Part shown: positions 1,031 to 61,900 of the stretch, in pieces | How the letters are laid out: each line of letters opens with the position of its first letter | Position numbering within the stretch: position 1 is the first letter of the stretch | Position numbers and translations under genes: made by a program | Assembly: GCA_002633005.1 (NCBI GenBank) | Contig: NMRA01000419.1 | Location: 280,770 to 344,769 of the forward strand | Length of the DNA stretch: 64,000 nucleotides | Reading direction: 5' to 3' | Source: Phoronis australis | Lineage: Eukaryota; Animalia; Phoronida | Notes under the pieces: generated by a model | Database searches by the model: none | The model's input: only the letters and a program-made list of their open reading frames with translations | What the model was told of the DNA's origin: nothing

Positions 1031-1151
1031 TATAAATGAGTTGAGCCAATGACTAGATGACCCAATGGTTGACAGGTGAATGAACCGGTACTACTTATGA
1101 TACGCGCACGAATATTTACAGGTGCGCAACTCGCCTGGTTACCGTAGTAAA
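1031..1151 (+). promoter_or_regulatory. Candidate tubulin promoter elements: TATA-like TATAAAT (~1031) and RFX X-box-like GTTACCGTAGTAAA (1138-1151)
   Basis: Motif matches 70-190 nt upstream of the ATG; the X-box match is imperfect and the TSS is unknown. Confidence 0.3.
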
Positions 1152-1222
1152 ACTTGCAGTACACAAGAGAAGCCTTGCCGAATTGACGCTTAAAAGGGAC
1201 TTGCAGCAAAGGCCTTGCGAAA

Positions 1223-13562
<12,340 letters not shown>

Positions 13563-37661: not shown

Positions 37662-40600
37662 GGTCTCACGGCACGTTGTTAACCCTTATTACATGGCTAG
37701 ATGATGTTATAAGGATCCAAGAAGTACCTACCCCATAACTAATACAGAATCCGTAATCGAACAAAGCTTAAATAAACGCGCCGCTCACGANTTATAGCAT
37801 TTTCTGGGATATCAATACTCTGGCATTTCTTGTAATCGTAACCAATAATTTACACACCGTGTTTCAAAGTATGGAAGTTAAGACAAATCTTAGACTTAAG
37901 TCAAAAATGAACTTAAGTCAGTTTCTTGGAACGGGGCCCTGGTCTCACGGCACGTTGTTAACCCTTATTACATGGCTAGATGATGTTATAAGGATCCAAG
38001 AAGTACCTACCCCATAACTAATACAGAATCCGTAATCGAACAAAGCTTAAATAAACGCGCCGCTCACGATTAGCACCCGAAAAATACACCGCCATTTTGA
38101 ACTTACCGCGAACCCTGGAGTACAATTCATTCAGGAACCCACTAGGCTAAGAAAACGCCGTCAGTGCGACTGGAGCAGGGCCTGTTTCCAGCCGGCAAAC
38201 GGGGATAAAATGTTCAAATCATAAATGCCGTATACATTCAAATGTATTTTCAGACACTTGCATAAAATTACAGACTGGTTAGTCCTGCGTCATTCTGCCG
38301 CGGCAGCCGCCTTAGCTAGCCTCAGTGCCAGCTATCGTCAAACTCACAACTCGTTAGTAGGCCTATAAAGCTTTGCGCCAAGGCTACCCTTAGGCCTGCC
38401 TGGTCCCTGGCCACAGTGCTCGCTCAAACGAGGTTTATTTAAAACTTGGGGTCTTCTGGCGAACTGTGGAAAGTTGTTGGCTTTCAACAGAGGTTTGCCC
38501 AGACTTTGCATGAGCGCCTCAAGCCTAAAAAATGGGGGGCTAGAATTTTTGGGAATGTCTACCTTTTACTATAAGATTCACTGGGTGAGTTCAGAGCTAT
38601 GAATTGCAGACGTTAAATTTTGGTACTTCCTGTCTTCTAGTGGACTTTTGTCTCGTTTTCTACTTTTTTCGGAGTTCGTGCTTCTCTGACTGAGGCACAC
38701 CTTTTTGCATTTCTTCAAATAGGGGGCTCGTTCGAGCACATAAATACGACAAGTCCAATAAAAATGTTATTCTTTATTCATTGAGCCAAAATTATTCAAC
38801 CTTTTACCATAATAAGTAACTTAGAATGCACAGTACTTTACAACATTTATGCATTACAAACACTATCCAACAGCACAAGTTTCCATGATATGAAAGTGAA
38901 CATACATGTAACTATTACCATGGTGGGCGAATAGTGTTTCCTTACACCAGAATTTGACAAGCATGATTTGAAAAAATATGAAGTTGTAAGGAACAAGAAT
39001 TGGAGGGTTGAAGCTTCACAATACAACATAACTTATTTTTCAAATTAAGATTCTTCATGTTGTTGATTTGATAAGCTGAATGAAGAACAAAAACATGACT
39101 TGAAAGCAATTTAGACCTAAAATTTAGAAAAATATGAATCATTTTGTGACACCTAGTCAAGCCTTGAACAGCAGTTGACAATCAAACAAAAAACATTTCA
39201 AAACTATTTCAACTATTTTTTAGCTTACTGTAAGATCACCTGAATGGGAAATTCACAGTTGATAAAACAGTTCGAATATATCTTATGTTTTTGCACCAAA
39301 AAAACAAAAAAACTAAACAAAGTTCCTTTTTTGTAGCAACGTTTGTCAAAATGTATCAACGGTAAATCTTCACAAATTACAAAGTAACAGGTTCAACATG
39401 CCTTCCAGTTCAACAAAAGTCGCCATGTTGTCGGTGCCGCCAGAAATGGGTCCAACGGGAATTGTGAGCACATTTATCACGTAATAAGTAACAACTGCTA
39501 GGCTGAAATTTGGTGGGAATTGTGGAATCGTGCAGAATAGTAAGTAAAGATATGTCACCGTAAATTGATGGGAAAAACAATTTACACAAAGTTTTAAACT
39601 CGTATCTTATCCCGCTGTCCTCCAATATGGCCGACGCGATCCAAACAAAGTACGTGACCCAAATTTCGCCACAAAAATTGCAATAACTTTGCACTGTTTG
39701 CCCCGATTGCGATACTTTTTCGATTTTTACTGAGTAGAATCCATTACCTTTCCGATGATAGCAAAGTACTTTTTCAAAACGAAAAAAAAAATCAAAACGA
39801 AAAAAATTGATTCAGCTCATATTGATTCCTAGGTTCGACCGCCCTACGTAAGGAACTAAACACCAATGCTATTTTAACATAATAAGTACGCGTAACATTC
39901 CAAAAAAAATTCAACGACCACTAACTACAAACTATAAATACACTACATATGCAAACGAATCACGAGATATTACTAATAAAACAAAATAATAAAGACTTTT
40001 CGAGCAAGCGATAGCACATTCAGTTACAAGGAAAAAATGGCGGCGTTCAGAACAAGTTCCTGAACTGACGAGCAGGAAATGTGGGTACGGAAATAACCGA
40101 TGACAGCCGGTAATTGTAGGCTCACAGAGAAGGGTCAAATACTGTTCAAAACTCGCCTTTTGCACAAAAGGCGAAAATATTATAAAGAACGGGTATCGAA
40201 AATAAGATTTTATTTAGTAAATGTTTTCGGATATTGGAATCACATTGGCATTTTGAGACAAGGACTTTAAATGAGCACGCTAAACAATCGCATGTTCAGC
40301 AAAGGGTATTGTACCGACATTTATACACTATGAAAAATAAGACGCATGATTTCCATAAAAAACGATATCTTATTTCAGTGAAATTTTTCACTCGTGTTCT
40401 CTTCACTCGTAAATCACCGATCTTCAATTTGAGTGCGGGTATCGTGTCGTCGGGATCCTTTGACTTGAGCATTATAGTCAGTTACTAGTGGTAACCTACT
40501 TTAGTAGACGATATATTCCCGGTCGAAGCTTAGCGTCATAAAATGTGTGGCAAGCTATAACAGTTGCTAAACCTTAATTTATAGATTCACTTTACTTCTA

Positions 40601-40785
40601 TTTTGTTTAAATTTTCAATTGGTTTTGAGTAAAAGCATTATTTGACAAAAATAGCTCGGCTTTTCTTAAAATGTCACGACCTCCGACCCCGGGCCTCTAA
40701 CATAGAAATGAGTTACAAAGCCGAGGTGAGTCGACAAAGGTAGATCGATTCATTGCAGTGTTTTTCGTTCAGTATGTGGTATAAA

Positions 40786-40926
40786 TAGATTATTACATGC
40801 TCTCAGTAGTTATCCCCCTTATCTAGAGCCCTCGTGGATTTTGCAGAATTATCACCCTCGAGGATAACACCCCTTGGGCGATAATTCTCCAAAATACACT
40901 CGGGCTCTTCGCCATGTAATAATCTA
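40786..40926. mobile_element. Small hairpin MITE in TA context
   Basis: TAGATTATTACATG / CATGTAATAATCTA termini and an inner inverted pair AGAGCCC..GAATTATC.CCC / GGGCGATAATTC..GGGCTCT. Confidence 0.7.
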
Positions 40927-40929
40927 TAT

Positions 40930-41260
40930 ATATCAGGTGACTGTGGATCTATAAAACACCAGAACATGAGGAATCTTTCCACATCATAACCAGTTCATTT
41001 AAGAACAATGTAAACAGAACGGGACTAAGGATGCACCCCTGTCTAACGCCTGTATCACAACTTAAACTATCTGTATGTAGACCATGAATTCTTACACGTG
41101 ATTTCAAGGTCTTGTACAGCGATTTCGCCACCTTCAGAACATTTACTTGTTTTCCATTTGATATCAGGATATTAAACAGAATCATATGTTATGATTCAAA
41201 GCCGGCTTTGGCAAAGTCAATAAATACAAGTTAACACCTCCTTTTTTCATAAATGTTTTT
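40930..41260 (-). mobile_element. Non-LTR retrotransposon RT remnant, 5' part (domains 3-4)
   Basis: FIDFAKA ... KSLYKTLKSRVRIHG...TGVRQGCILSPVLFTLFLNELV. Confidence 0.88.
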
Positions 41261-42519
41261 GTACCGGGTCAATTAAAGGGAAAGGCAACCTGTTTCCATG
41301 TCATTTTTAACAAAAATAAGGTTCTTTGATTTACCCAGATATATTTTTTACTTAATCACAGCTTTTCGTAATTTAATTAATTATTCGTCCTTTACTCCCT
41401 AAGTGACGTTTGGGAAGCAAGAATTTCGCGCCAATTTCTTTTCATACATTATGACTGTGAGAGCTGAGAGTCAGTCATTGTTATACCTAGGCTGTGACAA
41501 GTTCGACTGTCGTTTTCTTTTTTACGAGTCAGTCGAAGGCAGCGCAGGCACGGCACGACGTAGCACTGTCTTAGGCGGACCCCATTATGAGCCAAGCTGC
41601 CTTCGGCAGCGCAGTCAGGCTCCGACGTTTTTTGCTTGCGATCTACTAATGCGTGATTTTAAACTGTCGTGATAAAATAAAATACAATATCACAAATGGA
41701 ACTGTAAACACACAAGTGTAGGCTACACACCTGTTGCCAGGTGCCGCAACTGCAGTGCTTGAAACCGACGGCCGGAGCCGGAGGCACTGGTGGGTCTCGC
41801 ATCAGTTGACGTTAAGTTTGCCGTCGTAGAGTCCCTCAGTACAAATCCGCTGGGTCGTGGATTGTGTATTAGGCTGGTTATTCATATTTTGCAGCTGGTC
41901 AACTGCATCGGTCAAAAGACCAATGATATTTGACAGCACGGTTCTCTCTGTGACATTGTCTGAAATAATTCTTGCTTCGCCTTTGACAGCAGAATTTACG
42001 CAAAGACAAAGGCGGGAGCTCAAACGCATGCGCACATGCGACACATTGGTTTCGTCCATATGCTAACCGTTAGAATTGAATTCAAGACGGGCGGGATAGA
42101 ATTCACGAGGTTATTAGTTTCACCCATAGACCGCAAGGTTAGACGAAACAGAATCAACTAAACAGCATTGAAGCCAGTAAACAGGATAGAGTATACAAAA
42201 CACCATTCGGAGTTCACGATAATGGAATCGACGAATGTAGATTGAATTGATGTACTAGCATTGAATACACAAGATAGGATTGAGTTGTCATTCCGTTCGG
42301 CATTGAGTTCATTAAATAGAATTGAATACACATTTTGATGTTTTTGCTTAAACGGCCGCCCACTCATACCCGCCCAGGTTCGCTCAGATGACACACAGTT
42401 GCCACTTCTATTTTTGTAACTAACTTTTGTCTAACTTTGCCAGGCCTTGAAGAATTGCCTCTGTAGCCCTTTAGGTGCCATTTTTCTTGTTTATTCCTAA
42501 TGGGAGAATCAAATCGACA

Positions 42520-43110
42520 AAATAACACTCTTGTAGTCTACGAGTGAGTCGTTGGGAGACGAACTGTGTGTCCTAAAAACCGCTGTGCGTTATTTTCTTC
42601 TTAATTTGCTTAATTTCAGTGTGGACATTCTCTACACTGATATCGTGTGTTCAAAAGATTGCAAGGACATGGGATTGTTGATGGTACGGGATAGGTATAG
42701 CTCCACCTGTAGGAGCGTGTGCTCATGAAAGGTGATTTTTGAAACATGACGGCGCAGTTGGACATCCCGTTGCTCCCAACTTGTTCGATTCATAGCCCCA
42801 CCAACAACAAGTTGGGAAGTTTACACCCCCGGCGGAGAACCAAAGGGACATAATAACACTCTTGTAGTCTACGAGTGAGTCGTTGGGACTCGGAGACGAA
42901 TTGTGTGTCCCCAAGAACCACTTTGCGTTACTTTCTTCTTCTTTCCCTTCAGTCTGCCGTATTCACATTCTAAAATTGTGGACTCCCTCAGGACTTTGCA
43001 AAGAAATGGGCACGTTGACTGTAAGCTAGGTATAGTCCTATCATTAAATAGGAGCAGGTGGATGTTTTGAAAAAACACTCGGCTCCCGCAAATGCATCGA
43101 TGTGCCCGTA
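42520..43110. repeat. ~330-bp diverged direct duplication
   Basis: AATAACACTCTTGTAGTCTACGAGTGAGTCGTTGGGA at ~42521 and ~42853, with downstream similarity. Confidence 0.65.
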
Positions 43111-43988
43111 CACTTCTTTATAATTCAGTGACTGTATGGATTGATTATGCTTTGCCTCTATGCTCACGGAATGGGTGTTATCTTTTCCCACACGTAAGGA
43201 ACCTCATTTGGCATTTCCATTTTTTGAATTTCCCAGCCGTTGACTGTAGGCTGCGTAGATGTAAGAGCCCTACCATATTACCGACGAGTGTGTGCTCATA
43301 TAGGCCTCAGTACTAAGCCCGACTTTGGCGAAAAAATGAACTCTGTTCCGATAATTAATGTCTCCAATTCATGCAAAGGGTACCAGTTATAGGCCTAACT
43401 CCTTGGTGTTTATACATTTTTGGCCAAGTCAACTGAATTAAAATTCAAATGAAGACTTTTCTGAGCCTGGACCGCTATATGTTGCGACAGATAACTCAAA
43501 ACACCCCCGGCACGGCGCTCCTCTCATCAGCAGCAGCCACCACCTCCAAAAGCCACTTCCGTTGCAAATTCCGACATGTACTGCCTCTAAAGCCACCGAC
43601 CCCCCCGCCCCCCCGGCACGCGCTGCCCCGAACACTGAGCTAGCCTTTAGTACCGATAATGTATGGGTTCCTTAGGAGGAGGGTTTTTGTGTCGGAACAT
43701 TTCACGCACAGCCCAAAGTGGCTGAACCGATCAGCGCTATCTTGAGGCTCGGGGACGAGGCTGGATAATCCCAACGGATAGATACCGTTTGGTGAAGATT
43801 CTTTTAATCTATCCATCATAACACAATTAAAAGATACATCGTGACATGGAATTCTTATTTAAGTCACACGATGCTTTTATATCAGTTCCGATTCATATTC
43901 GAAAGTGTTATATTTAGAAGGAAATGAATTTCCGGTTAAAAAGGAAGGAGAGCATTGTTATCGTAAAACGTTTTTTGAAGAGCAAGTT

Positions 43989-46900
43989 ATGAACTCTGAA
44001 GATACGTATGAAGGTAAATCTTAGTTCGAAATCGAAATAAAATATAACCTGTGCTTGTGTCTTTATTTTGGTCTTTTAGCCGTGCCTCTTAATTTATGAC
44101 AATAGCCATTTTCAATCGATTACAATCGACGTGAATTCTGAAAGTGAACAGGTGAAACAAATCCTAGCCACCAAGCTACTGCAGTGCAGGCTAGTAGTTG
44201 CCAAAGTTTTTATACTTGGGTTATGGTTGGAGACCCTCCTGTGTTCTTTGCCAACCGGTATTTATCACCGTAACTGGTAATAACGTTTGAGTTAAAATGT
44301 ACTGGCAGCCAGAAAGTCGAACAAGCTCAGACTTTTTTGTCAATAAAGTAAATGTCTTTGCGGTATCGTCCGGTTACCTATTTTCGTCGGGCTCCAAAGT
44401 TCGTCCGCCATCTTGTTTCGCGTGCAGCGCAACCACGCGGGACTTAGCGTTCCAATTTGGAGTGCTCGTCTTCACGTTAGGTACTAACCTCTCGGGAGAA
44501 ACACGTATCAAAGTAATGAGACAAAAATCGGTGAGTTTACCGATTGTTTTTTAAAACCACTTAAAAATCAGTAGATTTTACTAATACACTTTTTTGTGCG
44601 TTTTCAGAAGATGTTTTCGAATTTAAATTTTCTTCCGACGGGACACAAAACATGATCCAGGGTTTGTTTATGCAATGTATCTGTTTGTCCCAGGCACTAG
44701 TAGGATCTAGAAGGCCAAAGGAAAAATCCGCAGACAAATGCGATACGCTGGGTTCTTAACATTTTTGCCTCACGTTCACCATTAAACTGCATTGAAATGT
44801 TGTCCAATTGGCTTTTATTGGAAACCACAGTGCAGAGCTCAACATCAAAGCTTCAAATCGAGTTTATGTCAATAAAAACAGGCTGTTGCAATTTTCATTA
44901 CTTCGTTGGCCTTTTTCTGCATGTTTCTCAGTTTTTACAAAAGGGGGCAGCATATGACGAACTTAGGTGTCACAATAAAATGGCTGCCGAAGGCAGTGCA
45001 CATTTGAAATAACTCGGCACAAATTAAAGAAAACTTCCGAATCGATGAATGCGGTATATCTGTGAGAGTTAAATCGAATCCTATTCAGATCATAACTTTG
45101 AAGTGGAATAATTCGGTGAGTACAACAGCAAGTCGGTTTTATGCTTAGGCGGACGAACATTGGGTTCCCCAGTATATATCAATGCGTGTTGCGACCGATA
45201 GATGGCGCGCACGTGGTAATAAATAAAACAACACAGGAATACTTTAACAATAGAATACGTCTATTAATTTGCAGCGTTGTGATTTACAAACAATAGATTA
45301 CAATAAGTTGTGAGAATGACGACTAACTGATTGAGACAAGATATCCCTACTGGAGAAACTACTAGTCAACAATGCCACTAGTTCCCCGTAGCTACCGCAC
45401 TCATTAACACAAAACAAGTCACAACAGAACTAACCCTCCAGAACAATCACTAGCCGGTTCAAATTGACTAACAGGCTGAGACCAACGCCAGTGATAAGTG
45501 TCTGTACCTCAGTTGTCCTTTCTCCTTGACTTTTTGGTCACACGAAGTTGCTCGTCTGGCCCCGGCTTTGTCTCTGTAGTCTGAAGTTATCTTCCAGCTC
45601 TGGAGTCGTGCCCCGTAGTCTGAAGTTGTGATCTATGGTGGATCCAGTCTGCCCTGGTCTCGAGAGCCAGTGCTTTAAATACTAAACTAAGTGGCATCAC
45701 GCGATGGACCCACTCTGTATGTACATATATGTACATCTCCCTATAACGAGCTAAAAAGAACTAGCTAACTGACCATCCCCCTAGAAAATTCTTGCATAAC
45801 TGCCACTATTCCTGGGTTTTCATTATCAGAGCACTATTCCTGGATTTAACTACCACAGAGGTACAGCATATCTCCTGAAATTTCTTGCATGCACATGGAG
45901 GGCATAGCCTCATTATATTACTTCTTTTCATGTTCTTTGAATGCCTTTGATGGGCTCCTTTACTGTTGCAATTGAGTATTATTCAATCTTAGTACTAGTG
46001 TGCTTTACTTGGCCACTGTTGTAAATTGTGGCTACTTAGGTTCTACGGTGCTACTCACCCTCGTTCATTTCTTGACTTTAAACGCCCTGTGAAACACACG
46101 TCCTCTTCTGATGGAGGACGACAAACGAGAGAGCAGGTCCAGCAGGTCCCCAGTCATGTGGCATGTACTATACGACCAAAGACGGACAACATTGAAACTG
46201 GACAACAAATACCTATCTAGGTTCACGACATTCATCCCCTCCCTTAAAAATTACTAAATAAACTAATTGGAAAAAAAACTAATGAGGAGTGAATGTGAAC
46301 AGGAACTAAAAAAACTATAACTATTTCCCCCCTACCTAATAGTTAGTGGACAAACAGCCTCAATAATGAGACATGTTAGTACAAACTATGGCGTCCGGTA
46401 ACTATATCATAAAAAAGTGACTGGGGGCCCTAAACTAAGATTGAAAAATCTGAGGAAAAATGAGCCAATTCTTGGCAAAATGTCAAAACAACAAAAAAAA
46501 CCGAACAAAATGAGCTAATAATAAAAAAAACTGAACATCGAGTACCCTAATTGTCAACTAAACTAATAAAGAAATAGATTATCAACTTAACACAACAAAT
46601 AACAATAAGGTAGCATAGCTTGGTGAAACTGAGCAGACCTACCCGCGAATGAGTATCCCTGGATCCCTGATGTGACTGAAAAAAAACAAGAAATTTTTAG
46701 AGGAATGTCAAAGGTAGTAACTGGTAGCTTTTTGCTATTTCACGTGAACTATTAAACATTAACTACAAAGCTATGCTACTAAACAAAACAAAGCAACGCT
46801 GGATTCACTGTCGACGAGCCTACAGCTTATACAATCGGCCGGCATTCCTAGCGGTCTGACGAAGGACTTGTCAAACAGTCATGCCGCGTTGATTGGCCAC

Positions 46901-49900
46901 CACCTCAGCCACCTCTCCTACGAACTGAGGATAATTTGGACGTTCCTTCAACGACAAATGTGGCGCGTCGGTATCCAAAAGGAGACGGTCTTCAGGTACC
47001 TTTCGCAAGGCATCAACTTGTCATCTTGTGAAGGTGTTACAGTTGCCGGAGAACCCGAAATAGCAGTTCGGAAACTGTTGGCAAAAATTCACTACACTAG
47101 CGTTGGTATCCCTGGTAAAAGTGTGTAGGTGTATCCTTTGGGTTGACGGAAGAAGATCCACAACGATGTTAAACACGGTTCAGAAGCCCCAGTCGTAGTG
47201 GGAACCAGGGGAGGCCGAACGGACATGGAACACCAGAGTCTTGTCCTTCACACTTCCATTGCGACGAGTAAGGTTTGCAAAGTACGGGAGTAGATTTTCA
47301 ATGAAACAAGCCTGTTCACGTTCGTTACCCAAGGACTGTTCAAACCCTATTTCGCCAAGACCAACGACGGAAGTTTCCCTGAGAAGCTGAAAGAGTATTG
47401 TTTTGGCTGCCTCCGAGAAGTTATTGACTTGTTTTGGGTGCACGCCTACCACCGCTTTGAACCCTAGAGGAAGGGCCCTCACGTAATCCTTGATAGGACG
47501 ACGATGGTATTCTGCTGGATCACAAAAAACAATGATGCCACCCACCAGTTTCATAGGATGCGACAAAGCGGTGAGGAGTCGCATCAAGAAGGTCCGGTAT
47601 GGACAGAAAACGGCTGTTACAAATATTGCATTTTGAGCTGTAAGCTGCCGTCAAACGGTCAATATGGAAATGGGAGTCTATAGCAGACTCTAATGCTTGA
47701 GATGATGTAGCTGGCGGAAGTACAGGAGCCTTGAATGGTGCTCGAGCAGCACTTGCATAGGTCTTCACGGTAGAAGACGTGGTCAATTGACTCACAAATG
47801 GCAGAGCTAAGGACTGTACATCTTTTGAACCACAGTTGAATGACAGGACCCACACTGAATGGTTAGGTTCTGGTTTGTGCGCCATCAGATGCAGCATCAC
47901 AAACCAGTGCATGCACAGGCCAGGGTTAAGTAATCTTCCAGAAATCGACAAAGGGGTTACTGGCGTCAGCCACCCCAGTACCCAGCACGAGATCATTAAG
48001 TGTAACTTGTCTTCTATAGTTACACGGGGCAGCTTGGCAACGCTTCGGAGGGCCAGTCTCGCGAGGTCGAGATCTTCATAGTTGCTCATTACTCGTCCTT
48101 CAATCTGCCACAACAGAGACTTAAATGCTTCAAAACGGGCATGTTGCACCTCATTGGATGAAAGGCGACACACTGAGTCAACATCAAAAACTGCCGGCAG
48201 ATGATTTGTCAAGGCGTGTGACCGTAAGTGGCCCTCTCCAGCTGAAAAGCTACTGAGGGGACAAATCAGATCTCCCGGCTTTGGTTTACGATTGGAAGGT
48301 GAAGATGAAGGTGAGGATGCAGATGCCTCACTGGGACGATTAGATACAGGTGGCGAGTCTCGATCACCAGTAGAAAGAGCTACAGACTGGTCAACTGGTG
48401 ACTTAGCAGAGTCAGTAGATTCTATAGTTTCCATAGGTTCAGGAACATCTTCCTGAATTAAATCTGGATTACGTACAACAGTTATCTTTGGTAGGTCTGG
48501 ATTATTCTTCAGATGGACATCCACACATGAAAAAGAGGTTCTGGAACAAGAACAAAGATGTAATTAAGTCTTGCACCGCGGACACAAATAAACATCCATA
48601 TCATGAGCATCATCAGCTGTAATGTTGACACACTCACCGTGTACCCAATCATCACGAGTCACACTGAATCATAAGGCCACCATGTTCAGGCTGACGACAC
48701 ACGCAATATAACTGATCATTTGCGCTAGTGTCAAGGTTAACAATGTTAACTATTCTTTGAAGCCAAGCAGGTAAATCCGTATAACTAGTCTTACATAATT
48801 TCATGCGATCATGATGAATCACTGACACAGAATTCTTAACACGAATTCTATATAGAGCTGGTGAGATGACTTCAGTGATAATACCAGGTCCCCTCCAAGG
48901 AGATGATAACTTCTTACAATTACGCTTTGAAGAAGCTGAGTCAAAGATAAACACCAGATCGCCTGTTCGGAAAACACGTTTAAATATAGTAAGGTCATAA
49001 TCTTTCTTCATAGAAGATTGACTAGTTTGCAGTACACCACGTGCAGTTTCGTGCTCTTTCAAAATCTGGAAATGATAACCAAAATGCGCGAAAAATTCAT
49101 TTACTGCTGCCACAGCAGTAAATGAATTTTTCATGCGTAATGCTGCGGTAGCTGTAACTTCGGCAGTCTGGGAAGGAAGGGGAATACATTCCACCCACAA
49201 CACCACGTTTTAAAAATCTACTGCTCACAGCTATGTTTTTCTGCGAATTTCTGCGGCCTAGGTCTCCATTTATTTTTGGTCAGTTGACTTACTAGTAGTT
49301 AGTTTGCATATAGGACAAATCACTGCCGTAAGGGAGATATTTGCAGTTTTTCAGTGTATTTATATCCAATCTATTATTCATAGGTACCTGTTTCCATACA
49401 CATTGTTTTAGTATTTGTCTATTTTATCAGTGGGATAATAAATTGGTTGAACATTCCCATTACACTTCAGGGACATGCGCTGTTTGCCTTGCTTTCCACA
49501 AGCATTGTATTGCCTAGCCAGCTAGCTGTGTATCACTCAACGCCTAACAGATTGGAATTGATGAATAAAAAGTTGAAAATTTAGGGCAAATTCGCTTTTT
49601 AGTTCACTCAAACTCTCATAAGTAGTTTACAAGAAAATGTGGTATCCCATCCGCTTTTGTATGTCATTTTCAAAACAATATGCTCAAATTTTTGGTTTGT
49701 TAAAAAGACGTATGTGAAACAAAATTTGCTTCCAATATGAGTTCCCTGATAATTAAATACTACAAAAGTACTAATGAACTTCAACCATATCTAGTATGGT
49801 TGTGAGTTGTGCACAAACTTGTGAAAAAGATCAGTGAATGGAAGATAAAATCATGAAAGTTTTGAAACATCTAGTTGAGGTAACAAAATACAGAAAAAAA

Positions 49901-52900
49901 AATGAATTAAATACTCAAGTAAGCAAATTGCTGTATTTGATTCAATTTTTCTGTATTTAGTGAATGGAAGAATCGATGAAAAACAATTGGCGAATAGACG
50001 GTGCTCTATTTGATGGGGCTCAAAGTACAGCCATTTTGACATTGCTAGGTTGTGCTAGTAAGGTCAATAGTATATTCGCAAAACACTGTCCTTCATGTGG
50101 CAGGATATTGAGAGGTCTTGTGTCATCTCAGTTATATTTACATGAAACTTGCTCTACGATGCACTACCTGGGCTCAGTTCAGAATCTCAAAATGTGTTCT
50201 TCAGTTAACCAAAATTAAGAAGGTCAAGATTATAAATCTTTGAGAAAATGAGACACTCTGCCTTCGAGAGGCCATTGTTGAATGCTTGATGAAAGGCTCA
50301 TCTTCATGTTTTTGTGCGACTTCCGGTTGTGTCTATTAAAGTTGCATAATTGCCTCTTTGAACTGCTCGTCAGCAGGCAATTGCTCTATGGCTAACTGGA
50401 TCAGGCACAAAATGACCATGCTGGAGGCCTGCGTTCTTCTACAGCTTAAACCAGGCTTGTTATAGCATTCAGGACTTTGTAGCTTTGAGCCCGAGAATGT
50501 CAAACTGCATAAGTATCGTTGGTCATCTCTGTCTTTGTTTGACAACAGTATCCCTATTAATAATAAATAAAGGCCAACAACTAGTAAAAATGTTGTTGTT
50601 GAGCTTTCCAGGATATTCATATTAATACTTGAAGATGATCTGCTGGACAACATCTACCTTGGTCATGTGGAACACTAGAAGTTGTAGTGGGACCTATGGT
50701 CACATGGTCACATGGGATCTTGTTTGTCTGGTGACATTGTCAACACTCTTTCCATGCAAATGAAAATTTAAATCTTGCGCCACCTAGCATGTTGAGAGGT
50801 TTGTTTTAGGGCTTAGGTGTAGAAAAAATCCTGTACCCCCTTGTTGTACGAGATCAGAACTACTTTTTAGTCACAGTGTGGTAAGAGTGAGTGACTTAGT
50901 GAGTCGCTTAAAAATGATCATCAAAATAGGGCAAGACTTCCTGTGATCACACTAACTGGATTTGTTGCACAGAACAATGTTCACCTAATCAGTGTATGAC
51001 TATGTTTTAGATGATGGTGGGTCTACACCTGTCCAAGATGAACGCGAATATCCAGACTTCACTCAAGCCTACAGTCAGCATGACCAAGGAGAAGAAAATC
51101 CTCCAGATTTCACTCAAGCATACAGTCAGCGTGACATAGGAGAAGAAGATGAACGTCCAGACTTCACTCAAGCGTACAGTCAGCAGCCTGAGCGTGATGA
51201 AGAAAGTCGGGAAAACTTTACTCAAGCTTACAGTCAACAGGTAATGGGTTTGCTAAGAACCACTAAAAATGTGTTCCTGGAAATCCCTTGCTTAAGTAAG
51301 CCAAGTACTTTGTGATCAGGGCACGTGATGTTTTATTTTTGAGACTTAAGGTCTACCTCATTGACCCACGAGGCCAGAAAATTCTCCAGTGATAAAAAAT
51401 ATTTCTCCTGTGTTTTGACTCAGGCAGGTACTCAAGGCTTAGAAAGTGTGTTTTGCAAAAATTCACTACAATATGGATTGTAACCTTGTTGCGTATTGTT
51501 GAGCTGGCCCAGGAGTTCACTCTGGTGTCCAAAATGCTTTTCCCAATTTCCCAGGGTGTCCATACCCTAGGCCTGAAAAGCCCAGTTGTTTCCTGGGCAA
51601 CTGACCCTGAAAATCAAGTCACCCTCCTGGAGCTAAGTTAGATTGTCCTGTTTTTTAAATAGCCTCTTTTTCAAGGCTGAAAATTCTCATTTTGCATTGG
51701 CACAGCTGACAAACTTGCTGCCAAACATTGATCAAAATCTCAATTTTATTCAGTTGATAGATGTCGGCAGCTATTCCACCTACTCTTTCGCGAGTGACTA
51801 GTCCTATCATACCAAGAAAATGTGCTTTGTAGATTCCTTGCAATGTTCACGATACACAAATTGTCACCTGTGGATCACGAACTTACCTAAAGTTTAATTG
51901 TGTTGTTTTAAATAATATCAGCACAATTATAGTTGTTGTTTTGTGTGAGATTTGCTTACGCATTAATGTTGTGTGTTAGATAAACTGCAGGCTATGATAA
52001 AAATTCATGTATTCAAATGCAATGATTTTTGTATGATTTTTCGTGGTTGGTTTCAGTCTCAAGAAAATGACGAGGAAGAAGGATTAATTGAGAGTGATAG
52101 CGAAGGTGAAGATGCGGCTGACACTGAAGACAGGGAAGAAGAGGTCACTGTTGAAGACAAAGATAAGGAAGAGGAATCTGATGATGGGGAGATAGTGTCA
52201 GAGGATGACGAGAGTGATAATGAATCGGACAAAGAGGATGAACAACACTCAGGAGAAGGTGAAATGGATTTATCTGACAATGACAGTGTGAATGATTCTG
52301 GTGGAGGCCGACAATCACCTGATGGACCTGCTAGTCCTGAGATGGACGAAGGGCCAGCCAGTCCTCAATCAGATACTGAGCCAGCATCGCCTGATGATGA
52401 CATAGGGCAATCTGGTCCTGCCTCTCCCAGTCCTGATTCCGACCAAGGCCCAGCATCACCTGATGGATCAGAATCAGGCAATCTGCACTTGACAGCTCCT
52501 GATGCACCAGACTCACCAGCCAGTAATCCTGCATCTCCAGTCAATGAGGACGATTCCAATGCTCGTGCATATTCCAGCGAAGACAACGGTCCCCAATCAC
52601 CTGACACACCCAGTCATGACACACCTGATTCACCTGTACAAGGTCAGGAAGAGCCCATTGCACCAGAAGAACCAGCTTCACCAGATGCTGAACTGGAAAA
52701 CCCACATTCCCCTGAGGAGGAACATGAAGGACCAAAGTCTCCAAACGTGAATCTTGAACAACCGGCTTCTCCTATTTCAGAGCAGGTTAAGCCAGAGTCG
52801 CCAGGCCAGGAGGCAGAAGAGCCTATGTCGCCAGGCTCTCCACTGGGTCCCGAGTCGCCTAAGTCTCCAGGCGAAGAAGGACCTGCCTCCCCAGTGTCAC

Positions 52901-55900
52901 CAGAATTTGAGGAGATTGAAACTGTGGCTGAAGAAGTCCACTCTTCAGTACCATCTCCAGGAAGAGTTGATGATGATGATGATGATGATAAGGAAGATGA
53001 TTCCTCTCCTAATGAAGTCACTGGCATGACAGAAAGTGTGGCTGAGGAAGTGGTGGGAGGGAAGGAGTCAGAGGATGAGGAACAGATGGTAGCTGAAAGG
53101 ATGATCTCTGCTGATGTTGCAGGTTGGTAATATTCACTGTGGTCGCTAGGAGCATAACATTTAGAGCCTTGTCACACGAAGGCAGTTCCCTGCACAATCT
53201 TGAAAACGGCACTAAAACTTCAGTGGGAACCGGATAAGCATTATACAATCTAAGCAAGAACCCCGTGGCCTGTCACATTAGAGGCATTTTTTGACCAAAG
53301 TACTTTCTTTCTGTCCATCCCTACCAGTAGCCGGTTTCATCAAAATATTAAGACAAGTGTGACAGGGCCTTGAACATTATGCTGAGAAATAGTTGTCATG
53401 TTGAAAGACATGTCAAATACCTCGCTATGGTACTTTGCGTTACTATGTAACCACTGTTGTGAGGTGATGTTGCTTGATTTGTCATGTAATGTTATTTCTT
53501 AAGTCACCCAGACAACAGGTGGTGCTGTTGGTGAATGACCTGACTAAATACCGGCTGCATAGTTCATAAAGCCATAACCATGTAATGGAAGTTAACGAGC
53601 AGACAATGGCTCAGTACATCAAAGATGAAAAGACATGTTAATCTAAGAGACAAAGAGGTGCAAGTTGCAGTCAGTCAGTAGATTTAGGTCGCAGTTGTAA
53701 TGTGACACAATAAAGACACAATATTTACATATTTAGTTTGGACACATTTGCAGCTTCCATTTGTTCTGATAACTCCTAACTATTGTTTTTAGCTCTGGCA
53801 AGTTGTTGACAGAAATCTCTGTCATCACTGCCACCTTGTGGTCACTGTCTATTTTCGTCTTTCTTTTCAGCACCAAGCCATGAAAGTGACAAGGAATCTG
53901 TAGATGAGAACGCTAGTGATGCTGAGAGTGAGAAGGGGTACTGACACGTTTTGTTTCTCTTAAATTTTGTGCTGTTTTTTGGCAATCTGAACTGTAGGAA
54001 CGTAATACTTGAGTACGGTGGTTGCTCTGCAATTGCATTGTGATGTGTAGAATTGGTAAATCGCATCACATGGTAAACTGCCTTCTTGACCCTTTATCAG
54101 CTTCTGTTCAGCACACATTTACAAAGTCATGTAACCAACATGTTGCTTTCTTTACAGGAGTGCTGTTGGAGAACTTATTGCCATTTACAAAGTCATGTAA
54201 CCAACATGTTGCTTTCTTTACAGGAGTGCTGTTGGAGAACTTATCGCTGACATTTTTGGATCAAGTGATGAAGAGGAAGAATTTGAGGTGCTTTTTGTAA
54301 AAAATGTGTCATAGGGCTCATAATTTGACCTTGTCTCCTTTGAGGAATTGAGAGCCTGTGTTGCAGTTGCTCACTGTTGATAGCTCAGTAGTCATTCTAC
54401 TTCGCTGAGTCATAAAAAAATACATGACGGACTACATCAACATGGAACCTTTTATTCAAAAGTTGAAACTTTCACCTTTAAGGGTGTAATGAAGTGTATG
54501 ACGAAATAAGAAAGCTATTTCCAGACATCAAGTATTTCAAGCGTGTTCATTTCTCTAATCTTAAGATTATTGTGTACTGTGCATTTTCACTAATTTCTAA
54601 CTAACTGGATTTTATTTTTAGTCGATTATGTTTGTTGTGCAGTTGTAAATACATTGGTAAATTTTTTCGGTACCCTAGGGATTCAATGAAGCAGACGTGC
54701 AGGAAGGCAAGACCAAGGCAAAGAGAGCTGTGATTGGCTCAGATGATGAACAGGAAGCTGGTGAGAAAGAGGCTGCACCAGTGGCAGACGATCAAGTTAT
54801 TCCAGACTTGTCTGATGAGGAAGATGATGACAAAGTCAACAGAGAGTAAGTAGGGGATGGGTGATGTGTAAACAGAGAGTAAGTAGGGGATGGGTGATGT
54901 GTAAACAGACAGTAAGTAGGGGACGGGTGATGTGTAAACAGACAGTAAGTAGGGGACGGGTGATGTGTAAACAGACAGTAAGTAGGGGATGGGTAATGTG
55001 TTACAGATATGAATCAAAGTAGAGAGTAACAGGACAACCCAAAAGAAATCAGTCAAATGATAGGAATCCATCATCATGATAGCTTCCTAAAAGGGAAACA
55101 CTAAATTTACTGGGCAGGTGTAGTAGCCGTCCGTCATGGCTGGCAATTTAGTGGAAAGTTGACATTAGTGGAATCGCTATTCTATTTTTAGAATATTGCC
55201 ATGATAACTGGTCACTTTTGCAGTAAGTAAAATTATCTATCATGATGGAGAAACACTGTTTTGTCTGATTACTGTTAGTGCACCTTGTAATTCATTGTTT
55301 CTTTGATCGGGGCGACATTTCAGGTCATTTTTACATATGAGCTGTTGAGCACTCGATCTTATTACTGGGGTTAAAGTCATACAGAGTAGAAATTGCTTTA
55401 CGGTTTTTTCAAACTTGATTCATGATTTCTCACATTTTTTGAGGATGGTAGTGGCACTACCTAGGATGGTTTGGGGAAATATTTCTATGTGCAGGGGTGA
55501 TGTCCTGTATGGTGGCTGTGTGTTGGAATACTTCTTCTAACATTTTATTCCTGCTTACAGTACACGACTAAAGTTATCAGACAAAACACCGTTTTCCCGT
55601 CATAACAGCAAATTCTGTTAACAGCAAAAATGACTGATAGTAACCATCAAGAGGGGTATCTTCTAATCGCAGAATGGTTGAGTCACCTTACTAACGTTCC
55701 TGTTAATTCCACGTCATTCTCTGTCGTGATGATAGATTACTCCGAGGGTCGTGACGGGAAATTCCGTGTCATTTTGTTTGAATACTTTAGGCTTGTACTG
55801 TAACTATGGCTTTTCACAAATGCAGGCTGTATGAGATTCCCCCATCTAGCTAATAGTAAACTTTCCATTAGGTCTTATCCAGCCAGGCAGAGAAAATTTT

Positions 55901-58900
55901 TTTTTGGAATAATGCGTGGTATGAGTTATCTGAAGGTCGGAGTGCTCACACTAAAACACTCATTCCGCAGAACTTTGAACAAACATGTGACTAGTGCAAG
56001 TTTTACCATATGTCTGTCATAATTATTAAGACATGAAGAAATGTAATGACCTGATGGGGTCGTACTGCTCAGGTTTGCATGAACACTGTCCTATAGGTGG
56101 CTCTCAAGTTAGCATCCAATAGCAACATCATGTGGAACGGTGTATAACTCAGGCTTCAGAATAACATTGTATCTTTATGTTCCAGGGACTTTGTGTCCGA
56201 CTTTGACCTAATGATGCAACGAAAGAAGGAGGAAATGGGAAAGAGACGGCGCAAGCGGAAAGACGTTGACATCATCAACGACAATGATGACCTCATCGTT
56301 GACCTAATTAGGAGGATGAAAGAGGCAGCTGAGGTAGAGTGCAGACCAGTCACTTACATTGACATGTGATGATTTTACTAGTTAGATAATTATACTATCA
56401 ATAAAATTAGCATTATGTAGAAACTTGTCTACAAGTATGTACATTTAGCCAAATATCTACAAACTATTGAATTTGGCAGCAAAAGTTTACATTTTCTGAA
56501 AGTAGAAATTCCATAGAATTCAATTTTTGACTTAATACCAATCTATCATTAATTGGTGTTGGGAATGTGCTTATGTCATGAAATTAAGTAATAAGGAAAT
56601 GTACCTTCATAGCAAAACAACAAAATCAATGACATGATGAGCAAATTTTATATAAAATGTTAAAGGTAAAAATCACAAAACAGCTGTTAAGTTTTTTAAA
56701 TTATCATTTTGTTTTTGTTTTATGCAATTTAAGTTGTTTTCATAAAAATTATGATTGTGAAACTGTTGCATCAGTAGATATTTTCAATGTTTTATGAGCT
56801 GCCATGTCTTAATATTTCAGAAACATGTATTTAACACTGAAATCATCCATGTCCCAATCTTCATGATCAAGAAAAATAATTTTCAGCTTGAATTTTGGTG
56901 TCCCAAATTTTAGAGACTGTCTCAATCTAGAGAATTTTTACCGTAATCCTGAGGTTATGGTGACCATGTGTCAAATGTTTTCCAAGCCGAACTTAAATGT
57001 TTCGTTTAAAGAAAGCATTGTCCACTTATGTTTGAAGTCAAAGGAACACAAGATGTGTGTCAGTGAATGTTTTTGAAGAAAATCAATTATTTTTCCTTTG
57101 GTACTGTTAAACGTGGGCATGCATGTTTTTACTTTCCTATTTTTTTTCTTAATTTTTAATATCCATGTTTCATTTTCTGACTACATTTAATAAATGTTTT
57201 CACATGCTTTCAACAGGAAGACAGAGAACTGAACAAAGTGAGAAAACCTGCCTTAAAGAAATTAGCCATGCTGCCTGAGGTGAAATCACAGCTTATTAAG
57301 TAAGTTTCTAAACCTTGTTATGGAGAACATTTTGCTGGCTTGTGGCCTTTTTGTTTCTATGAACGCATCATCTGACTTCAGATGGCACTAGTTCACTGCA
57401 GCTGGAGTGTGTAGTTGATAGCAATTTTGTTGTTGATCAATTCTTTAGTTGCTGCTGCAATCCAGGTGGAACAATTTACTTGTCATTCTTTTCATTTCAG
57501 ATCTGGTATACACATAGCCTTTCTAGAGTGTGGCATCCTAACAGCAATAACAGTAAGTTGAAGCAGAATACTGAGGCAATTGTGTTTGGCTTGTTGACAA
57601 TGTTTTTCACTTTTTCGTTGCCTCCTTTGTCTGAATGAAAAACAAACATTCAGCCGTTTTAAATTTTTATGCCTCCTTTACCTGTTGTTGCTGTCTGTAG
57701 CTTTAGATCGGTTTGTGAAAAATTTGTTCCTTTTCTTTTAAGCGTTTTGCGGACTTGTATAAACCTGTCTTCCATGATAAAACTAACTTTTGCTTAAGAA
57801 CCTTAATTTGCAGCTATGAACTCAAAATTTTCCTTACTTAAGTAAATTATGCCAAGGTGCTTTCAGGTGCCTGTTTCTTTTTAAAGTCTATAGCCAAAAG
57901 CTGATTTTATGTCTTTTGGCTTTTAGTCTGCTTCCAAATAGGCTACAGATTTCTGTCTTCTTGCTTTGAGTTGTAGACAGGTTTTCTGACTTTTAGCCGT
58001 AGCTTGATTTTTTTGGTCTCAAGTAATAAAATAGTTCAGATCATACTGAAGCTTGCCTTGAAAAAAAGCAGATGGTGTGACTGTATTATGTGCAAGTTGG
58101 CGATATATATGTATGTATGTATTACTGGTTACCAGTAGGTTATAATGACTTTCAGTGTATTACACGCAAGTACTGGTTACCAGTAGGTTATTATGTCTTT
58201 CGCTGTATTACATGCAAGTACTAGTTACCAGTAGGTTATAATGTCTTTCACTGTATTACACGCAAGTACTGGTTACCAGTAGGTTATAATGTGTTTCACT
58301 GTATTACATGCAAGTACTGGTCACCAGTAGTTTATAATGTCTTTCACTGTGTTACACGCAAGTTCATGACTCTAGACACTAATTATGTCTTTCATTGTAT
58401 TACATTCATTGTGCTTGTTTATGACATCTTGTCACTCCATTGCAGGAATGGTTGGCACCTCTTCCTGACAAAAGCCTTCCTCATTTGCAGATCAGAGAAT
58501 TTTTACTTAAAATACTGGGAGAGGTAAGAAACAGTTAAGGGCTCATCCAGCAAAATCCGTATGGGGGGACGGCGGTAGAAATAAAAATTCATGGGTGGTG
58601 GTTTCCAGAAAAAAGCTCAAATTATGGGTGGTCATTCTAAGAAGTGAAGCATTAAAACTGGATGGTATTTTTTGACCTGTCAATGTTGACTGGTTGGTAT
58701 TTTCATCCAAACACATCTTAAAAGAAAAAACAACTCATCAAACATTCACTTGGCAAATACCCTATCACATCCCAAAACATCAAACAAGCCCATGTTGCCT
58801 GTGTACAGAGTGCAATATGTACTCTAAGCCATTAATCAAGTCGTGAGCAACTTGATTATGAACACATGTTCAACTCCAGTCATATTAGAATGAAACTGGT

Positions 58901-61900
58901 GTTAACACACATAAGAAAATTGATGATTTTTAAATAAAAATTATGATGAGTAAGATAGACAAGTTCTAATATTCACTTGACATAGCAGTATAAAAGAGTT
59001 CGTGGAGACTGTTTGAGATTCATAGACCCATGAAATTGAAAAAACCTTTATTGAAATTACAGACACATGGTGAACAGAGACACCTAGTGGCTACCAAAAG
59101 TATTGCTCACAGGTGTCTTTGAAAAGCAAGTTTCTGGTAACTGATATGAGTAGTGATCTCACATGGAATTTTTCTGCACCCACAAAAACTTTGTGGTCGG
59201 TCCGTCTGTCATTATCCTTTCTTGTCCATCAATTATCTCAGGGCTGTTCCAGCAAAATCTGTGTGGGAGGGGGGGGAAGGCAACTGAAATAAAAATTTAT
59301 GGGTGGTTGCGTTTGATTTAAATTCAAAATGGCTGGTGGTCGTACTTCAAAAAAATAAAAATTTACAGGTCGTTGTTGTTTCATTGGGCCATAAATGTTT
59401 GATGGTGGGTAATTTTAGTAAATTTTATAAACAATCCGCACAGAATCAAAAACTGAAACAAAAATGCAACTTGCAAAAAGCTCCAACTTTTTCACTCCCT
59501 CCGATCTCCTCATCGGCATGCCCATAACACCATTTAACCACAGGTGCTCGAATTTCTCGATGGCTAATAACCATATATAAGAAACATATGTTTTCTTAGT
59601 TATGAATGACATTAGTGGTGATGGAGGAACAGATAAACTCATGTGCCTGTGCAGTCAACCACAAGAACAAAAAAAATTACAGGTGGTTGCATTTCAAACT
59701 TATAAAAAATTACGGGTGGTAGGCTGAAGAAATAAATGAAAAATATGGGTGGTGGGTGAGAAAAAAAGGTGCCTTGCCCCCTCCCATACAGATTTTAAGA
59801 ACGGCTTGGTGGATCATGATGAAATTTGGTATATACTAGGTACTTGGCAAGGATGCGGCTGCACCAGTCGATTTCCGGGCGGGTTTGGCAACCATGGTAC
59901 CCCATGTTGGCCGCTTAAGTTTTCGACAAGCCATTCCTTGTATGTTATCACAAAAGCTGCTTCACTGATCACTGACAATGAAAGTTGAAATAGAAGTATA
60001 TCGCAAGAATGTGCCGGCACCAATCAATTTTTGGACGCTGGATATAACTACTGTGGCACTCCGTTAGTTTTTGACAAGACAGGTTGATTATCTCAAAAAG
60101 TGCTAGACACAACTGGAAATTTGGCTCAAAAATATATAGCAGGGATGGATGCATTGACAGAAGTCATTTTCATTTTGATTCGACCACCGTCTTGGCTAAT
60201 TTAGTTTTTGACAATATTGGACAAGACAACTAGTTCTTGTCTGTCAATCATCTAAGTTCTGTACAGGTCATCCTGGATGCAATTTGTTTGCAAGTGTTGG
60301 ATTTTATATTTTAACCTATTAATTAAACAATTATGGGTCATGGGTTGGAGAAATAAATAAAAAATATGGACGGTGGGTATGAAATAAAAGTGCCTCCCCT
60401 CCTCCCATACAGATTTTGCTGGAACAGCCCTTACTGTGTAGTCTTGACTTGAGCTTTGATACACAAGTGTTTCTGTAACCCCTAGTTCATTATTATTATG
60501 ATTATGATTATTATTTTGATTATTATTATTAGTGGAAAGGGGCCATTGCCTGGACAGCTGAAATGAGGGATATGGATGGATGTTGTATTTGCCTCTCTTG
60601 ATGATTGGCTGTCCCTTGGCATAAGCCAGACGTCCGGAGGTTACCTGGTAACTGTGTGTGTGATAAAATATTCTTGAACTGTACGCAGTAGTACTGTGAT
60701 TGTTGAATGTGAACACAAAGTTGATTTTCTGCTTATTGGATGCTCTGACTGTTTTGTTGCAGTTTCCATCCATTGGTAGTGATGCCCTCAAGACAAGTGG
60801 AGTGGGTAAGGCTGTCATGTACGTGTACAAGCACCCACGCGAGGTGAAGAGTAACAGAGACAAGGCGGGAAAACTAATCAGTAAGCTATTGGCTAGATGT
60901 CGTTGAAAAAGCCTGCAACTTTTCTAAAACAAAGAATTCGTTTATCAGTGTGTTGTAACTAGGCCATGACAGTGTGTTAATGAACATTTACAATTGCTGC
61001 ATTCCATTCATTTTCAGTGAAGACTTGTTACTAATAAGCTGCTTTGCTACATTTGATTGTTTAATCTTTGTGGAGAAAAATATATTTGTTATGTCCTTAA
61101 TATATCTAGACTGAGTAAATGTGCAGACAAGCTGTGTAGCCAGTATTCTATCCACTTTTTAAACTTACGTTTTACAGATGAATGGTCAAGGCCAATATTT
61201 GACAAGATGTGTATCCACTTTTTAAACTTATGTTTTACAGATGAATGGTCAAGGCCAATATTTGACAAGATGTGTATCCACTTTTTAAACTTATGTTTTA
61301 CAGATGAATGGTCAAGGCCAATATTTGACCTCACATCAAACTACAAATTGTTATCCAAAGAAGAGCGTGAAAAACGAGACTACGATCAGTTGCCTAAGAA
61401 AAGAAGGATGAGGTAGGTACATTGTGGACGTGTGTCACAAATTAAGGTGGAATGTGACAAAAGATTCGCTTAGACTGAGTTAAAGTTAGTGTTGTACAAA
61501 TATTATGTATGCTGATATTAGTTAAAGTATTGTACAAACATTATCTCTGCTGAATATTAATTAAAGCATCCAATTCACTATGTTCTAATTGTTCTTGACT
61601 AGAAACGATTGTTGTCTTTTATAAAGTCAGTGTTTCCTGTTTTATCAGTCTCCCACTTGTTTATACATGTGCTATTATTATGTGATCAGGTTGTATGGAT
61701 TGTTACCAAGGAGATCAAGGTTATAGTTATTTTGCCTTTGGTGGACATTGACGGGTTAACACTGTCTTTGAACACTTGACCGCACATCATGCTCTGATTT
61801 AGATACAACGTAAAGGTTACCTGTCTTAGCATTTAAAATGCCTGCACAGTTTACACTGTCCTTTACTGCAAAGTATCTGAAATGCAACGCGAGGATTCTC

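Follow-up and report, generated by a model that had tools for sequence, protein, structure and literature searches.

A dead Ty3/Gypsy relic within IWS1 of Phoronis australis and a marine-invertebrate clade of integrases tipped by a predicted H3K4me2/3-reader PHD finger

Can a retrotransposon integrase that ends in a PHD finger be guided by that finger to the chromatin of active genes? The question is raised by a 64,000-nucleotide (nt) stretch of the phoronid Phoronis australis (GenBank assembly GCA_002633005.1, contig NMRA01000419.1, positions 280,770 to 344,769 of the forward strand), here called the window and numbered from its first letter, in which the remnant of a Ty3/Gypsy long terminal repeat (LTR) retrotransposon lies on the minus strand inside the plus-strand gene IWS1. 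The original prediction, made from the letters of the window, was that the integrase of this element carries at its end a PHD finger of the kind reading histone H3 trimethylated at lysine 4 (H3K4me3), and that the element sits beside a housekeeping promoter. Our own reading, to which we would give a probability of roughly 0.55, is that the window holds a dead Ty3/Gypsy relic, antisense in intron 1 of IWS1, and that its PHD finger belongs to a predicted reader of H3K4me2/3 which in intact relatives would anchor the integrase on chromatin at the 5' ends of active genes.

For comparison with other proteins the finger was taken as P0001, a 214-residue stretch of the window in which the two PHD reading frames are joined with an X at the break (Table 1). 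On the minus strand the first frame runs into stops and the remainder of the finger is found in the next frame; the change amounts to one base and falls exactly where relatives carry the fourth zinc-ligand Cys (alignment A3), so that seven of the eight C4HC3 ligands are readable in this copy. P0001 scored 31.2 bits against Pfam PF00628 (PHD; gathering threshold 24, E = 2.2e-07). Searching the Protein Data Bank (PDB) with phmmer matched the window finger to PHF2 (7e-11), PHF8 (9e-10) and CFP1 (9e-10), with further matches to Spp1, BPTF, DIDO1, Pps, KDM7A, EBS, TAF3 and ING4. Judged by such scores the PHD identity of the finger is far above chance, and the prediction of a PHD finger broken by a single frameshift was borne out, the window copy being a broken (pseudogene) member of a PHD family.

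Longer homologues comprised 58 proteins (E = 1.7e-51 to 3e-9), and in 50 of them PF00628 occurs together with rve and/or RVT domains, often with protease (PR), reverse transcriptase (RT) and RNase H (RH) as well. Named sources of the PHD-bearing proteins are Mytilus, Pecten, Pinctada, Saccostrea, Diadema and Acanthaster; the PHD-less homologues come partly from Ptychodera, Gigantopelta, Mytilus edulis and Crassostrea, and most of the remaining homologues are metagenomic. Using the pattern C-x-C-x(7-14)-C-x2-C-x4-H-x2-C-x(8-25)-C-x2-C near the C-terminus, a complete C4HC3 finger was recognized in 47 of the 58, at most 39 residues from the C-terminus in all of these except one (46/47). A scan of genome contigs yielded 27 loci (L081-L107), 14 of them with the finger. 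The eight zinc-ligand columns are invariant across the 14 loci, and in every one only 1-19 residues separate the end of the finger from the pol stop, at the place where chromoviruses carry their chromodomain. None of the ten PHD-less relatives checked has a reader domain in its integrase tail, which marks the finger as a clade-specific addition. A scan of viral contigs with an alignment of integrase (IN) and PHD (A2) returned 29 pattern matches, none of which was confirmed.

The intact relatives supply the layout that the window has lost. Locus L084 (14,735 nt) has direct repeats (1-300 = 13175-13474 and 1031-1187 = 14203-14359), a gag of 763 amino acids (aa) with capsid and zinc-knuckle matches, and a pol of 1813 aa in which aspartyl protease, RVT_1, RNase H, Integrase_H2C2, rve, SH3 and PHD (29.8 bits) follow one another in that order. 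The layout of L086 is the same, and L093 also has direct repeats (1-216 = 11972-12187). These relatives are Ty3/Gypsy elements of the form LTR-gag-pol(PR-RT-RH-IN-PHD)-ORF3-LTR, ORF3 being a third open reading frame (ORF), and the PHD finger is the last pol domain in a large marine-invertebrate clade.

Two features of the contig records should be mentioned here. All 27 loci, each with an invertebrate-type Gypsy pol, sit in records titled as bacterial metagenome-assembled genomes (Sedimenticola, SUP05, Nitrospinota, Gammaproteobacteria and Spongiibacteraceae), bins that evidently hold host-animal contigs. In L090 the interval 1-11388 contains a 7,761-nt unit repeated head to tail, whose PHD fingers, at 2777 and 10538, are identical; this is either a tandem element pair sharing an LTR or a circular or mis-joined assembly.

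What such a finger might read is best approached through its methyl-lysine cage. The cage of PHF2 is formed by Y7, Y14, M20 and W29, which are invariant in PHF8 and KIAA1718, and that of ING2 by three residues, W-M-Y (Horton et al. 2022, PMC9898751, in part; sources so marked are cited from a portion of their text, at every mention). In an HMMER alignment three residues of the window copy, its Tyr ahead of Cys1, its Met three positions ahead of Cys3 and its Trp two ahead of His, align with PHF2 Y7, M20 and W29, and the proposal that these residues form a cage of the H3K4me3-reader type was thereby supported. The original prediction had let its case depend on their conservation in the family, and conserved they are: among the 47 relatives whose finger is complete, Cys1 is preceded by Tyr in 37, by Phe in 8 and by His in 2 (Tyr or Phe in 45/47), and both the Met and the Trp are kept in 47/47.

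The fourth position is another matter. At the place of PHF2 Y14 the window copy has Glu, and the 47 relatives have Asp (27), Trp (8), Tyr (6), Cys (3), Glu (2) or His (1). PHF2 E22, which contacts R2 of H3/VRK1 (PMC9898751, in part), aligns with Gln in the window copy. Between Cys2 and Cys3 the loop of the window finger has one residue fewer than that of PHF2 and the same length as that of CFP1, which carries Asp at the Y14 position in the HMMER alignment. The CFP1 PHD finger binds H3K4me3 with a dissociation constant of 1.3 µM, as against 9.1 µM for me2, 64 µM for me1 and 373 µM for me0 (Brown et al. 2017, PMC5603731, in part). By alignment, the fourth-position data exclude a full PHF2/8-type cage and leave the reader subclass intact, with a CFP1-like arrangement of three residues.

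Comparison of profiles and of predicted folds leads to the same group of proteins. A profile built from 14 intact relatives matched PHF2 (2.5e-18), CFP1 (4.1e-18) and BPTF (1.7e-17) in the PDB, then KDM7A, PHF8 and DIDO1. For the fold we used an AlphaFold model of the last 164 residues of the intact L084 pol, a predicted structure with a mean confidence score (pLDDT) of 74 and of ~84 across most of the finger. Foldseek placed this model on BPTF with H3K4me3 (2f6j) at a root-mean-square deviation of 1.5 Å over 51 columns with 45-47% identity, on Pps (5wle) at 1.4 Å over 53 columns and on PHF2 with H3K4me3 (3kqi) at 1.7 Å over 50; the other top matches were DIDO with H3K4me3, PHF8, KIAA1718, AL1, PHF13 and DmCfp1 with H3K4me3. 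The cellular fingers of PHF2/PHF8/KDM7A, CFP1/Spp1, BPTF, DIDO1 and Pps are thus the best matches of the family in sequence and fold and have the same C4HC3 spacing, and CFP1 further shares the loop length and the Asp that is common in the family at the fourth cage position. They differ from it in that the family finger sits on a retrotransposon integrase and not on a demethylase, COMPASS or NURF, and in that most family members lack the fourth cage residue present in PHF2/8 and BPTF. As far as alignment and modelled fold can tell, we have here a genuine PHD finger belonging to the PHF2/PHF8/CFP1/BPTF subclass, and to call this putative reader 'H3K4me3-reader type' is well founded.

How a reader at this place might be used is suggested by the chromoviruses, in which a chromodomain at the integrase terminus guides new insertions into heterochromatin (Gao et al. 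2008, cited after the summaries in PMC6673714 and in section 10 of the preprint 10.1101/2021.11.30.470311); it is because of this precedent that we propose tethering here. In both groups a Ty3/Gypsy integrase terminates in a histone-mark reader that immediately follows the SH3-like/GPY/F domain, and the proposed logic is alike, the reader docking the integration complex on marked nucleosomes. Following this logic, the PHD finger of intact family members would bind H3K4me2/3 tails, as its relationships suggest, it would dock the complex of integrase and cDNA on nucleosomes so marked, and new copies would insert by preference close to transcription start sites or within first introns. However, the reader is a PHD finger here and a chromodomain there (Pfam finds no Chromo match in the window copy or in the L084 pol), the mark predicted here is H3K4me2/3 of active 5' chromatin as against H3K9me heterochromatin, which makes the predicted targets opposite, and targeting has been demonstrated in chromoviruses whereas here it is predicted by analogy. 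The PHD clade is an analogue of the chromoviruses, not a member.

It also should be considered that a real PHD finger may read something else, for example H3K4me2 or me1 within gene bodies or at enhancers, some methylated protein other than a histone, or a host factor, and that it may serve in tethering or in another step of the life cycle with no promoter targeting at all. Several points speak for this alternative, and so against the reading we prefer. The methylation state that a PHD finger prefers is unreadable from sequence; the PHD of sea-urchin RAG2L prefers H3K4me2 (PMC7204232, in part), and the PHF2 PHD binds the methylated non-histone protein VRK1 too (PMC9898751, in part). The window copy retains just three of the four cage positions of PHF2 and has Gln in place of the R2-contacting Glu, and, as described above, Tyr is a minority residue at the fourth position in the family. 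The sole insertion seen, that in the window, is intronic, at least 2.8 kb from exon 1 and away from the promoter. Two further points concern targeting as such: in the literature searched we found no binding or integration experiment on the PHD-integrase family, and the cost to the host of targeting active promoters has been put forward as an argument for the rarity of fusions between bromodomains and transposable elements (Bromo-TE fusions; Grau-Bove et al., 10.1101/2021.11.30.470311, in part). Against a different target stands the fact that all close solved relatives, by sequence and by fold, are readers of H3K4me2/3, and that CFP1, whose cage of three residues and loop length are the same, has a ~290-fold preference for me3 over me0 (PMC5603731, in part). 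We consider a different target unlikely, if deserving of serious attention, and retain H3K4me2/3 as the predicted mark.

A second distinguishing feature of the clade is ORF3, which in intact elements lies between pol and the 3' LTR and encodes 821-926 aa. That of L084 (10704-13169) has 821 aa, of which the last 265 belong to the TatD family (117 bits), and ends 6 nt before the 3' repeat; that of L086 occupies 6894-9674. The remnant in the window reaches 31.7 bits against PF01026 (threshold 27) as against 117.4 and 123.9 bits in intact relatives, and is interrupted by three in-frame TGA codons at 47180-47182, 47021-47023 and 46871-46873 (read through with X in P0060), yet in alignment A1 the His, Glu and Asp columns of the metal-binding motifs are invariant, the window remnant included. 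The open frame ahead of it ends with the first TatD motif (DSHFH). No Pfam family was found for this 347-aa N-terminal remnant, and a search of the ESM Atlas with the N-terminal 550 residues of the L084 ORF3 gave no usable match. A TatD-like ORF follows the finger, 3' of it and on the same strand, in 11/11 PHD-bearing loci with at least 2 kb of downstream DNA, the other three contigs ending 170-1064 nt past the finger; among the 13 PHD-less loci a TatD match was seen in one (L097), and it was weaker. A metagenome scan with alignment A1, in which the generic TatD motif served as the pattern, produced 80 loci (L001-L080) at 27-37% identity, many on long contigs, and these were set aside as ordinary cellular tatD genes.

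In the literature searched we found no description of a TatD ORF3 in any retrotransposon. The nearest precedent is the DEDDy exonuclease of Juno and Vesta, LTR retrotransposons of bdelloid rotifers, whose ORF3 is a DEDDy 3'-5' exonuclease or a GDSL esterase (PMC5408684, in part). Like the PHD clade they have a nuclease gene where errantiviruses carry env. Unlike them the PHD clade has a nuclease of the TatD family (PF01026) and not a DEDDy enzyme, and the word 'TatD' occurs 0 times in PMC5408684.

The constant company of finger and nuclease, together in all 11 loci where it could be seen, bears on another possibility, namely that the finger has no role in integration and acts afterwards or in trans, holding element proteins on active chromatin for the element's own transcription or against silencing, or works together with the ORF3 TatD. 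Other epigenetic domains borne by transposable elements have likewise been proposed to modulate local chromatin and not to target insertion (10.64898/2026.05.21.726589, in part). However, the finger is covalently the last integrase domain, immediately ahead of the pol stop where chromoviruses have their targeting chromodomain, whereas ORF3 is a separate reading frame; and L097, which lacks the PHD, also has a TatD ORF, so PHD and TatD are separable. A finger without part in integration therefore seems to us quite improbable. At the other end, the most far-reaching form of the tethering reading would make the clade a mirror image of the chromoviruses, with the PHD finger docking on H3K4me3, copies placed at 5' ends and in first introns of active genes, and the ORF3 TatD serving the same process, perhaps in the processing of nucleic-acid intermediates. 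This is a tentative extension, possible but on the whole doubtful.

The copy in the window can do none of this. Using the full-length relative P0003 in tblastn, the window was found to keep only residues 1190-1226 (49197-49051) and 1347-1509 (49053-48570). About 120 integrase residues have been deleted internally, joining a fragment of the core straight to the C-terminal domain, and all three catalytic DDE positions are absent, two by 5' truncation and one by the internal deletion. In the same search no part of the 64 kb matched gag, PR, RT or RNase H, and there was no match upstream of 49209. Ahead of the PHD the Integrase_p58_C match reaches 27.2 bits against a threshold of 27, and that to SH3_Tf2-1 is weak (18.1 bits). 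That the integrase ends in a PHD finger, as first proposed, holds in so far as the finger directly follows the integrase C-terminal domain; what precedes it is only a dead stump with no catalytic core. The window copy is a dead, 5'-truncated and frameshifted Ty3/Gypsy relic which has lost all that is needed for activity.

No LTR pair is detectable in the window: there is no direct repeat of at least 60 nt in 38000-64000, and the best match when 49210-51000 was compared with 40000-47200 by word-9 blastn had E = 0.13. Below 46820 there may be a single decayed 3' LTR. The 815-nt repeat at 44364-45176 was entertained as a solo LTR of the element and rejected, being 1.6 kb from the ORF3 stop and without TG..CA ends. 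Beside the junction of the ~120-residue deletion, the 43 nt at 49090-49132 match their own reverse complement at 93% identity, and this self-complementary stretch may be a trace of how the deletion arose.

Transcription was followed in three runs of raw RNA reads (X1, X2 and X3) of the same species label. On the relic reads occur at low depth (47436-47903 and 49142-49198) and either carry fixed mismatches or extend into sequence that the window lacks, the reads from other copies ceasing to match at 49198. It follows that other family copies are transcribed in the same species, on the element sense strand as judged from the strandedness of the library.

These observations also bear on whether the locus could be a domesticated host gene, in which integrase tail, PHD and TatD function in place and are not transposon debris. 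A public Acanthaster gene model (P0056) does fuse IN, PHD and TatD, and there are a few RNA reads on the stretch. However, the window has the frameshift in the finger, a further frame change and the three in-frame TGA in the TatD part, its catalytic core is deleted, the RNA depth is at most 2 and many of the reads, mismatched or running into absent sequence, come from other copies, and the intact relatives are LTR-bounded elements with gag and pol. Domestication is hardly credible here, and we keep to the reading of a dead relic.

The setting of the relic differs from what was first supposed. That the adjoining plus-strand gene is IWS1 was confirmed, its exon at 60700-60903 matching human IWS1 in the PDB (E = 8.7e-14) and Pfam Med26 (34.9 bits). 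However, the ORF at ~50989 that had been taken for IWS1 exon 1 is exon 2, since RNA reads join 44011 to 51009; a second joint, 51237 to 52054, is supported by 14, 9 and 2 reads in X1, X2 and X3, and no RNA reads fall in 43152-43919. The LTR end that had been placed ~1.2 kb from exon 1 was not recovered by the repeat search or the word-9 blastn, and the element does not stand beside a housekeeping promoter, the whole relic lying antisense within intron 1 (Table 1). Measured from the exon-1 donor, its ORF3 end (46820) is 2.8 kb away and its finger 4.6 kb, and 1.8 kb lie between the truncated integrase end (49209) and the exon-2 acceptor. A site in the first intron, a few kb from a transcription start, is loosely compatible with H3K4me3-guided insertion and carries almost no weight: the same position is unremarkable for any old intronic fragment, and the original ends of the element are gone from view.

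Table 1. Features of the relic and of the 5' part of IWS1 in the window
Feature	Position	Strand	Basis and remarks
PHD finger, C4HC3, predicted H3K4me2/3-reader type	48573..48705	minus	PF00628 31.2 bits, residues 169-212 of P0001; PHF2 E 7e-11
Frameshift inside PHD finger	48654..48657	minus	two reading frames; four-letter step read as X; alignment A3
pol stop codon	48564..48566	minus	2 residues past last Cys of finger
Integrase C-terminal SH3-like (GPY/F) domain	48658..49053	minus	tblastn, P0003 residues 1347-1479; Integrase_p58_C 27.2 bits, SH3_Tf2-1 18.1 bits
Integrase core fragment; element 5'-truncated here	49051..49209	minus	tblastn, P0003 residues 1190-1226 to 49197-49051; ORF limit 49209
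ORF3 N-terminal remnant, 347-aa open frame	47520..48563	minus	tblastn, homologous to linker of Acanthaster IN-PHD-TatD model P0056
TatD-like nuclease remnant of ORF3	46820..47650	minus	Pfam TatD_DNase 31.7 bits; other frame than N-terminal part
IWS1 exon 1 end, ATG to splice donor	43990..44011	plus	loose ends of spliced reads map with 1 mismatch
IWS1 intron 1, 6,997 nt, holding the whole relic antisense	44012..51008	plus	GT..AG joint; reads 15 (X1), 13 (X2), 0 (X3)
IWS1 exon 2	51009..51237	plus	RNA joints at 51009 and 51237

IWS1 itself holds several repeats. The 815-nt stretch at 44364-45176 in intron 1, which has no TG..CA ends, shows an RNA depth of 40-80 on both strands, as against 10-18 on the IWS1 exons, with many variant letters and many different loose ends at its sharp borders, and has the look of a dispersed high-copy repeat that is transcribed at many loci. 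At 61149-61337 a 63-nt unit stands three times in tandem (98% and 89% identity). Every copy has an acceptor-like polypyrimidine/AG end and then the IWS1 C-terminal coding motif ..DEWSRPIFD.., so that the start of an exon appears to have been triplicated. The IWS1 introns further contain tandem repeats of 33 nt x6 (54802-55034), beginning right at the end of an acidic exon, and of 48 nt x6 (58075-58452).

Capture of PHD fingers by transposons, retrotransposons included, is already in print. A PHD occurs in Penelope-like elements of Chlamys (PMC8557442), and Ginger1 has a Gypsy-integrase-like transposase with Ulp1 and PHD (PMC2836005). In a survey of 172 genomes, PHD and Chromo readers were seen to co-occur with reverse transcriptase and integrase domains, and cnidarian retrotransposons were reported with a PYGO-type, H3K4me-reading PHD (Grau-Bove et al., 10.1101/2021.11.30.470311, in part). 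The clade described here likewise has a transposon-captured PHD reader, presumptive as its reading is, and differs from the published fusions in the position of the finger in the protein, in the class of element and in the PHD subtype, having a finger of the CFP1/PHF2 type at the tip of a Ty3/Gypsy integrase and, in addition, a TatD ORF3. RAG2 and RAG2L are comparable in that a PHD binding methylated H3K4 forms part of a DDE recombinase machine, in invertebrate transposons including those of sea urchin and molluscs; there the PHD belongs to an accessory subunit of its own, RAG2L, and differs in its Cys/His pattern, and the element is a cut-and-paste DNA transposon (PMC7204232, in part). The words 'PHD' and 'chromodomain' have 0 occurrences in PMC5890265 (de Mendoza 2018), which is therefore no source for PHD-bearing elements. 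In the literature searched we found no description of a CFP1/PHF2-type PHD at the tip of a Ty3/Gypsy integrase of bivalves or echinoderms, a fusion that the supplement of preprint 10.1101/2021.11.30.470311 may list.

The work presented here adds a corrected gene model of IWS1, family-wide counts of the cage residues and a PHD clade with a TatD ORF3. The interest lies in the family rather than in the window copy, a dead fragment which adds little. Should the finger indeed steer integration, the clade would represent a natural retroelement aimed at active-promoter chromatin by a direct reader of a histone mark, opposite to the chromoviruses. Retroviruses reach promoters through host adaptor proteins, and the mechanism would differ from theirs also. 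The clade would then offer a compact natural module for studying the balance that mobile DNA strikes between access to open chromatin and damage to host genes.

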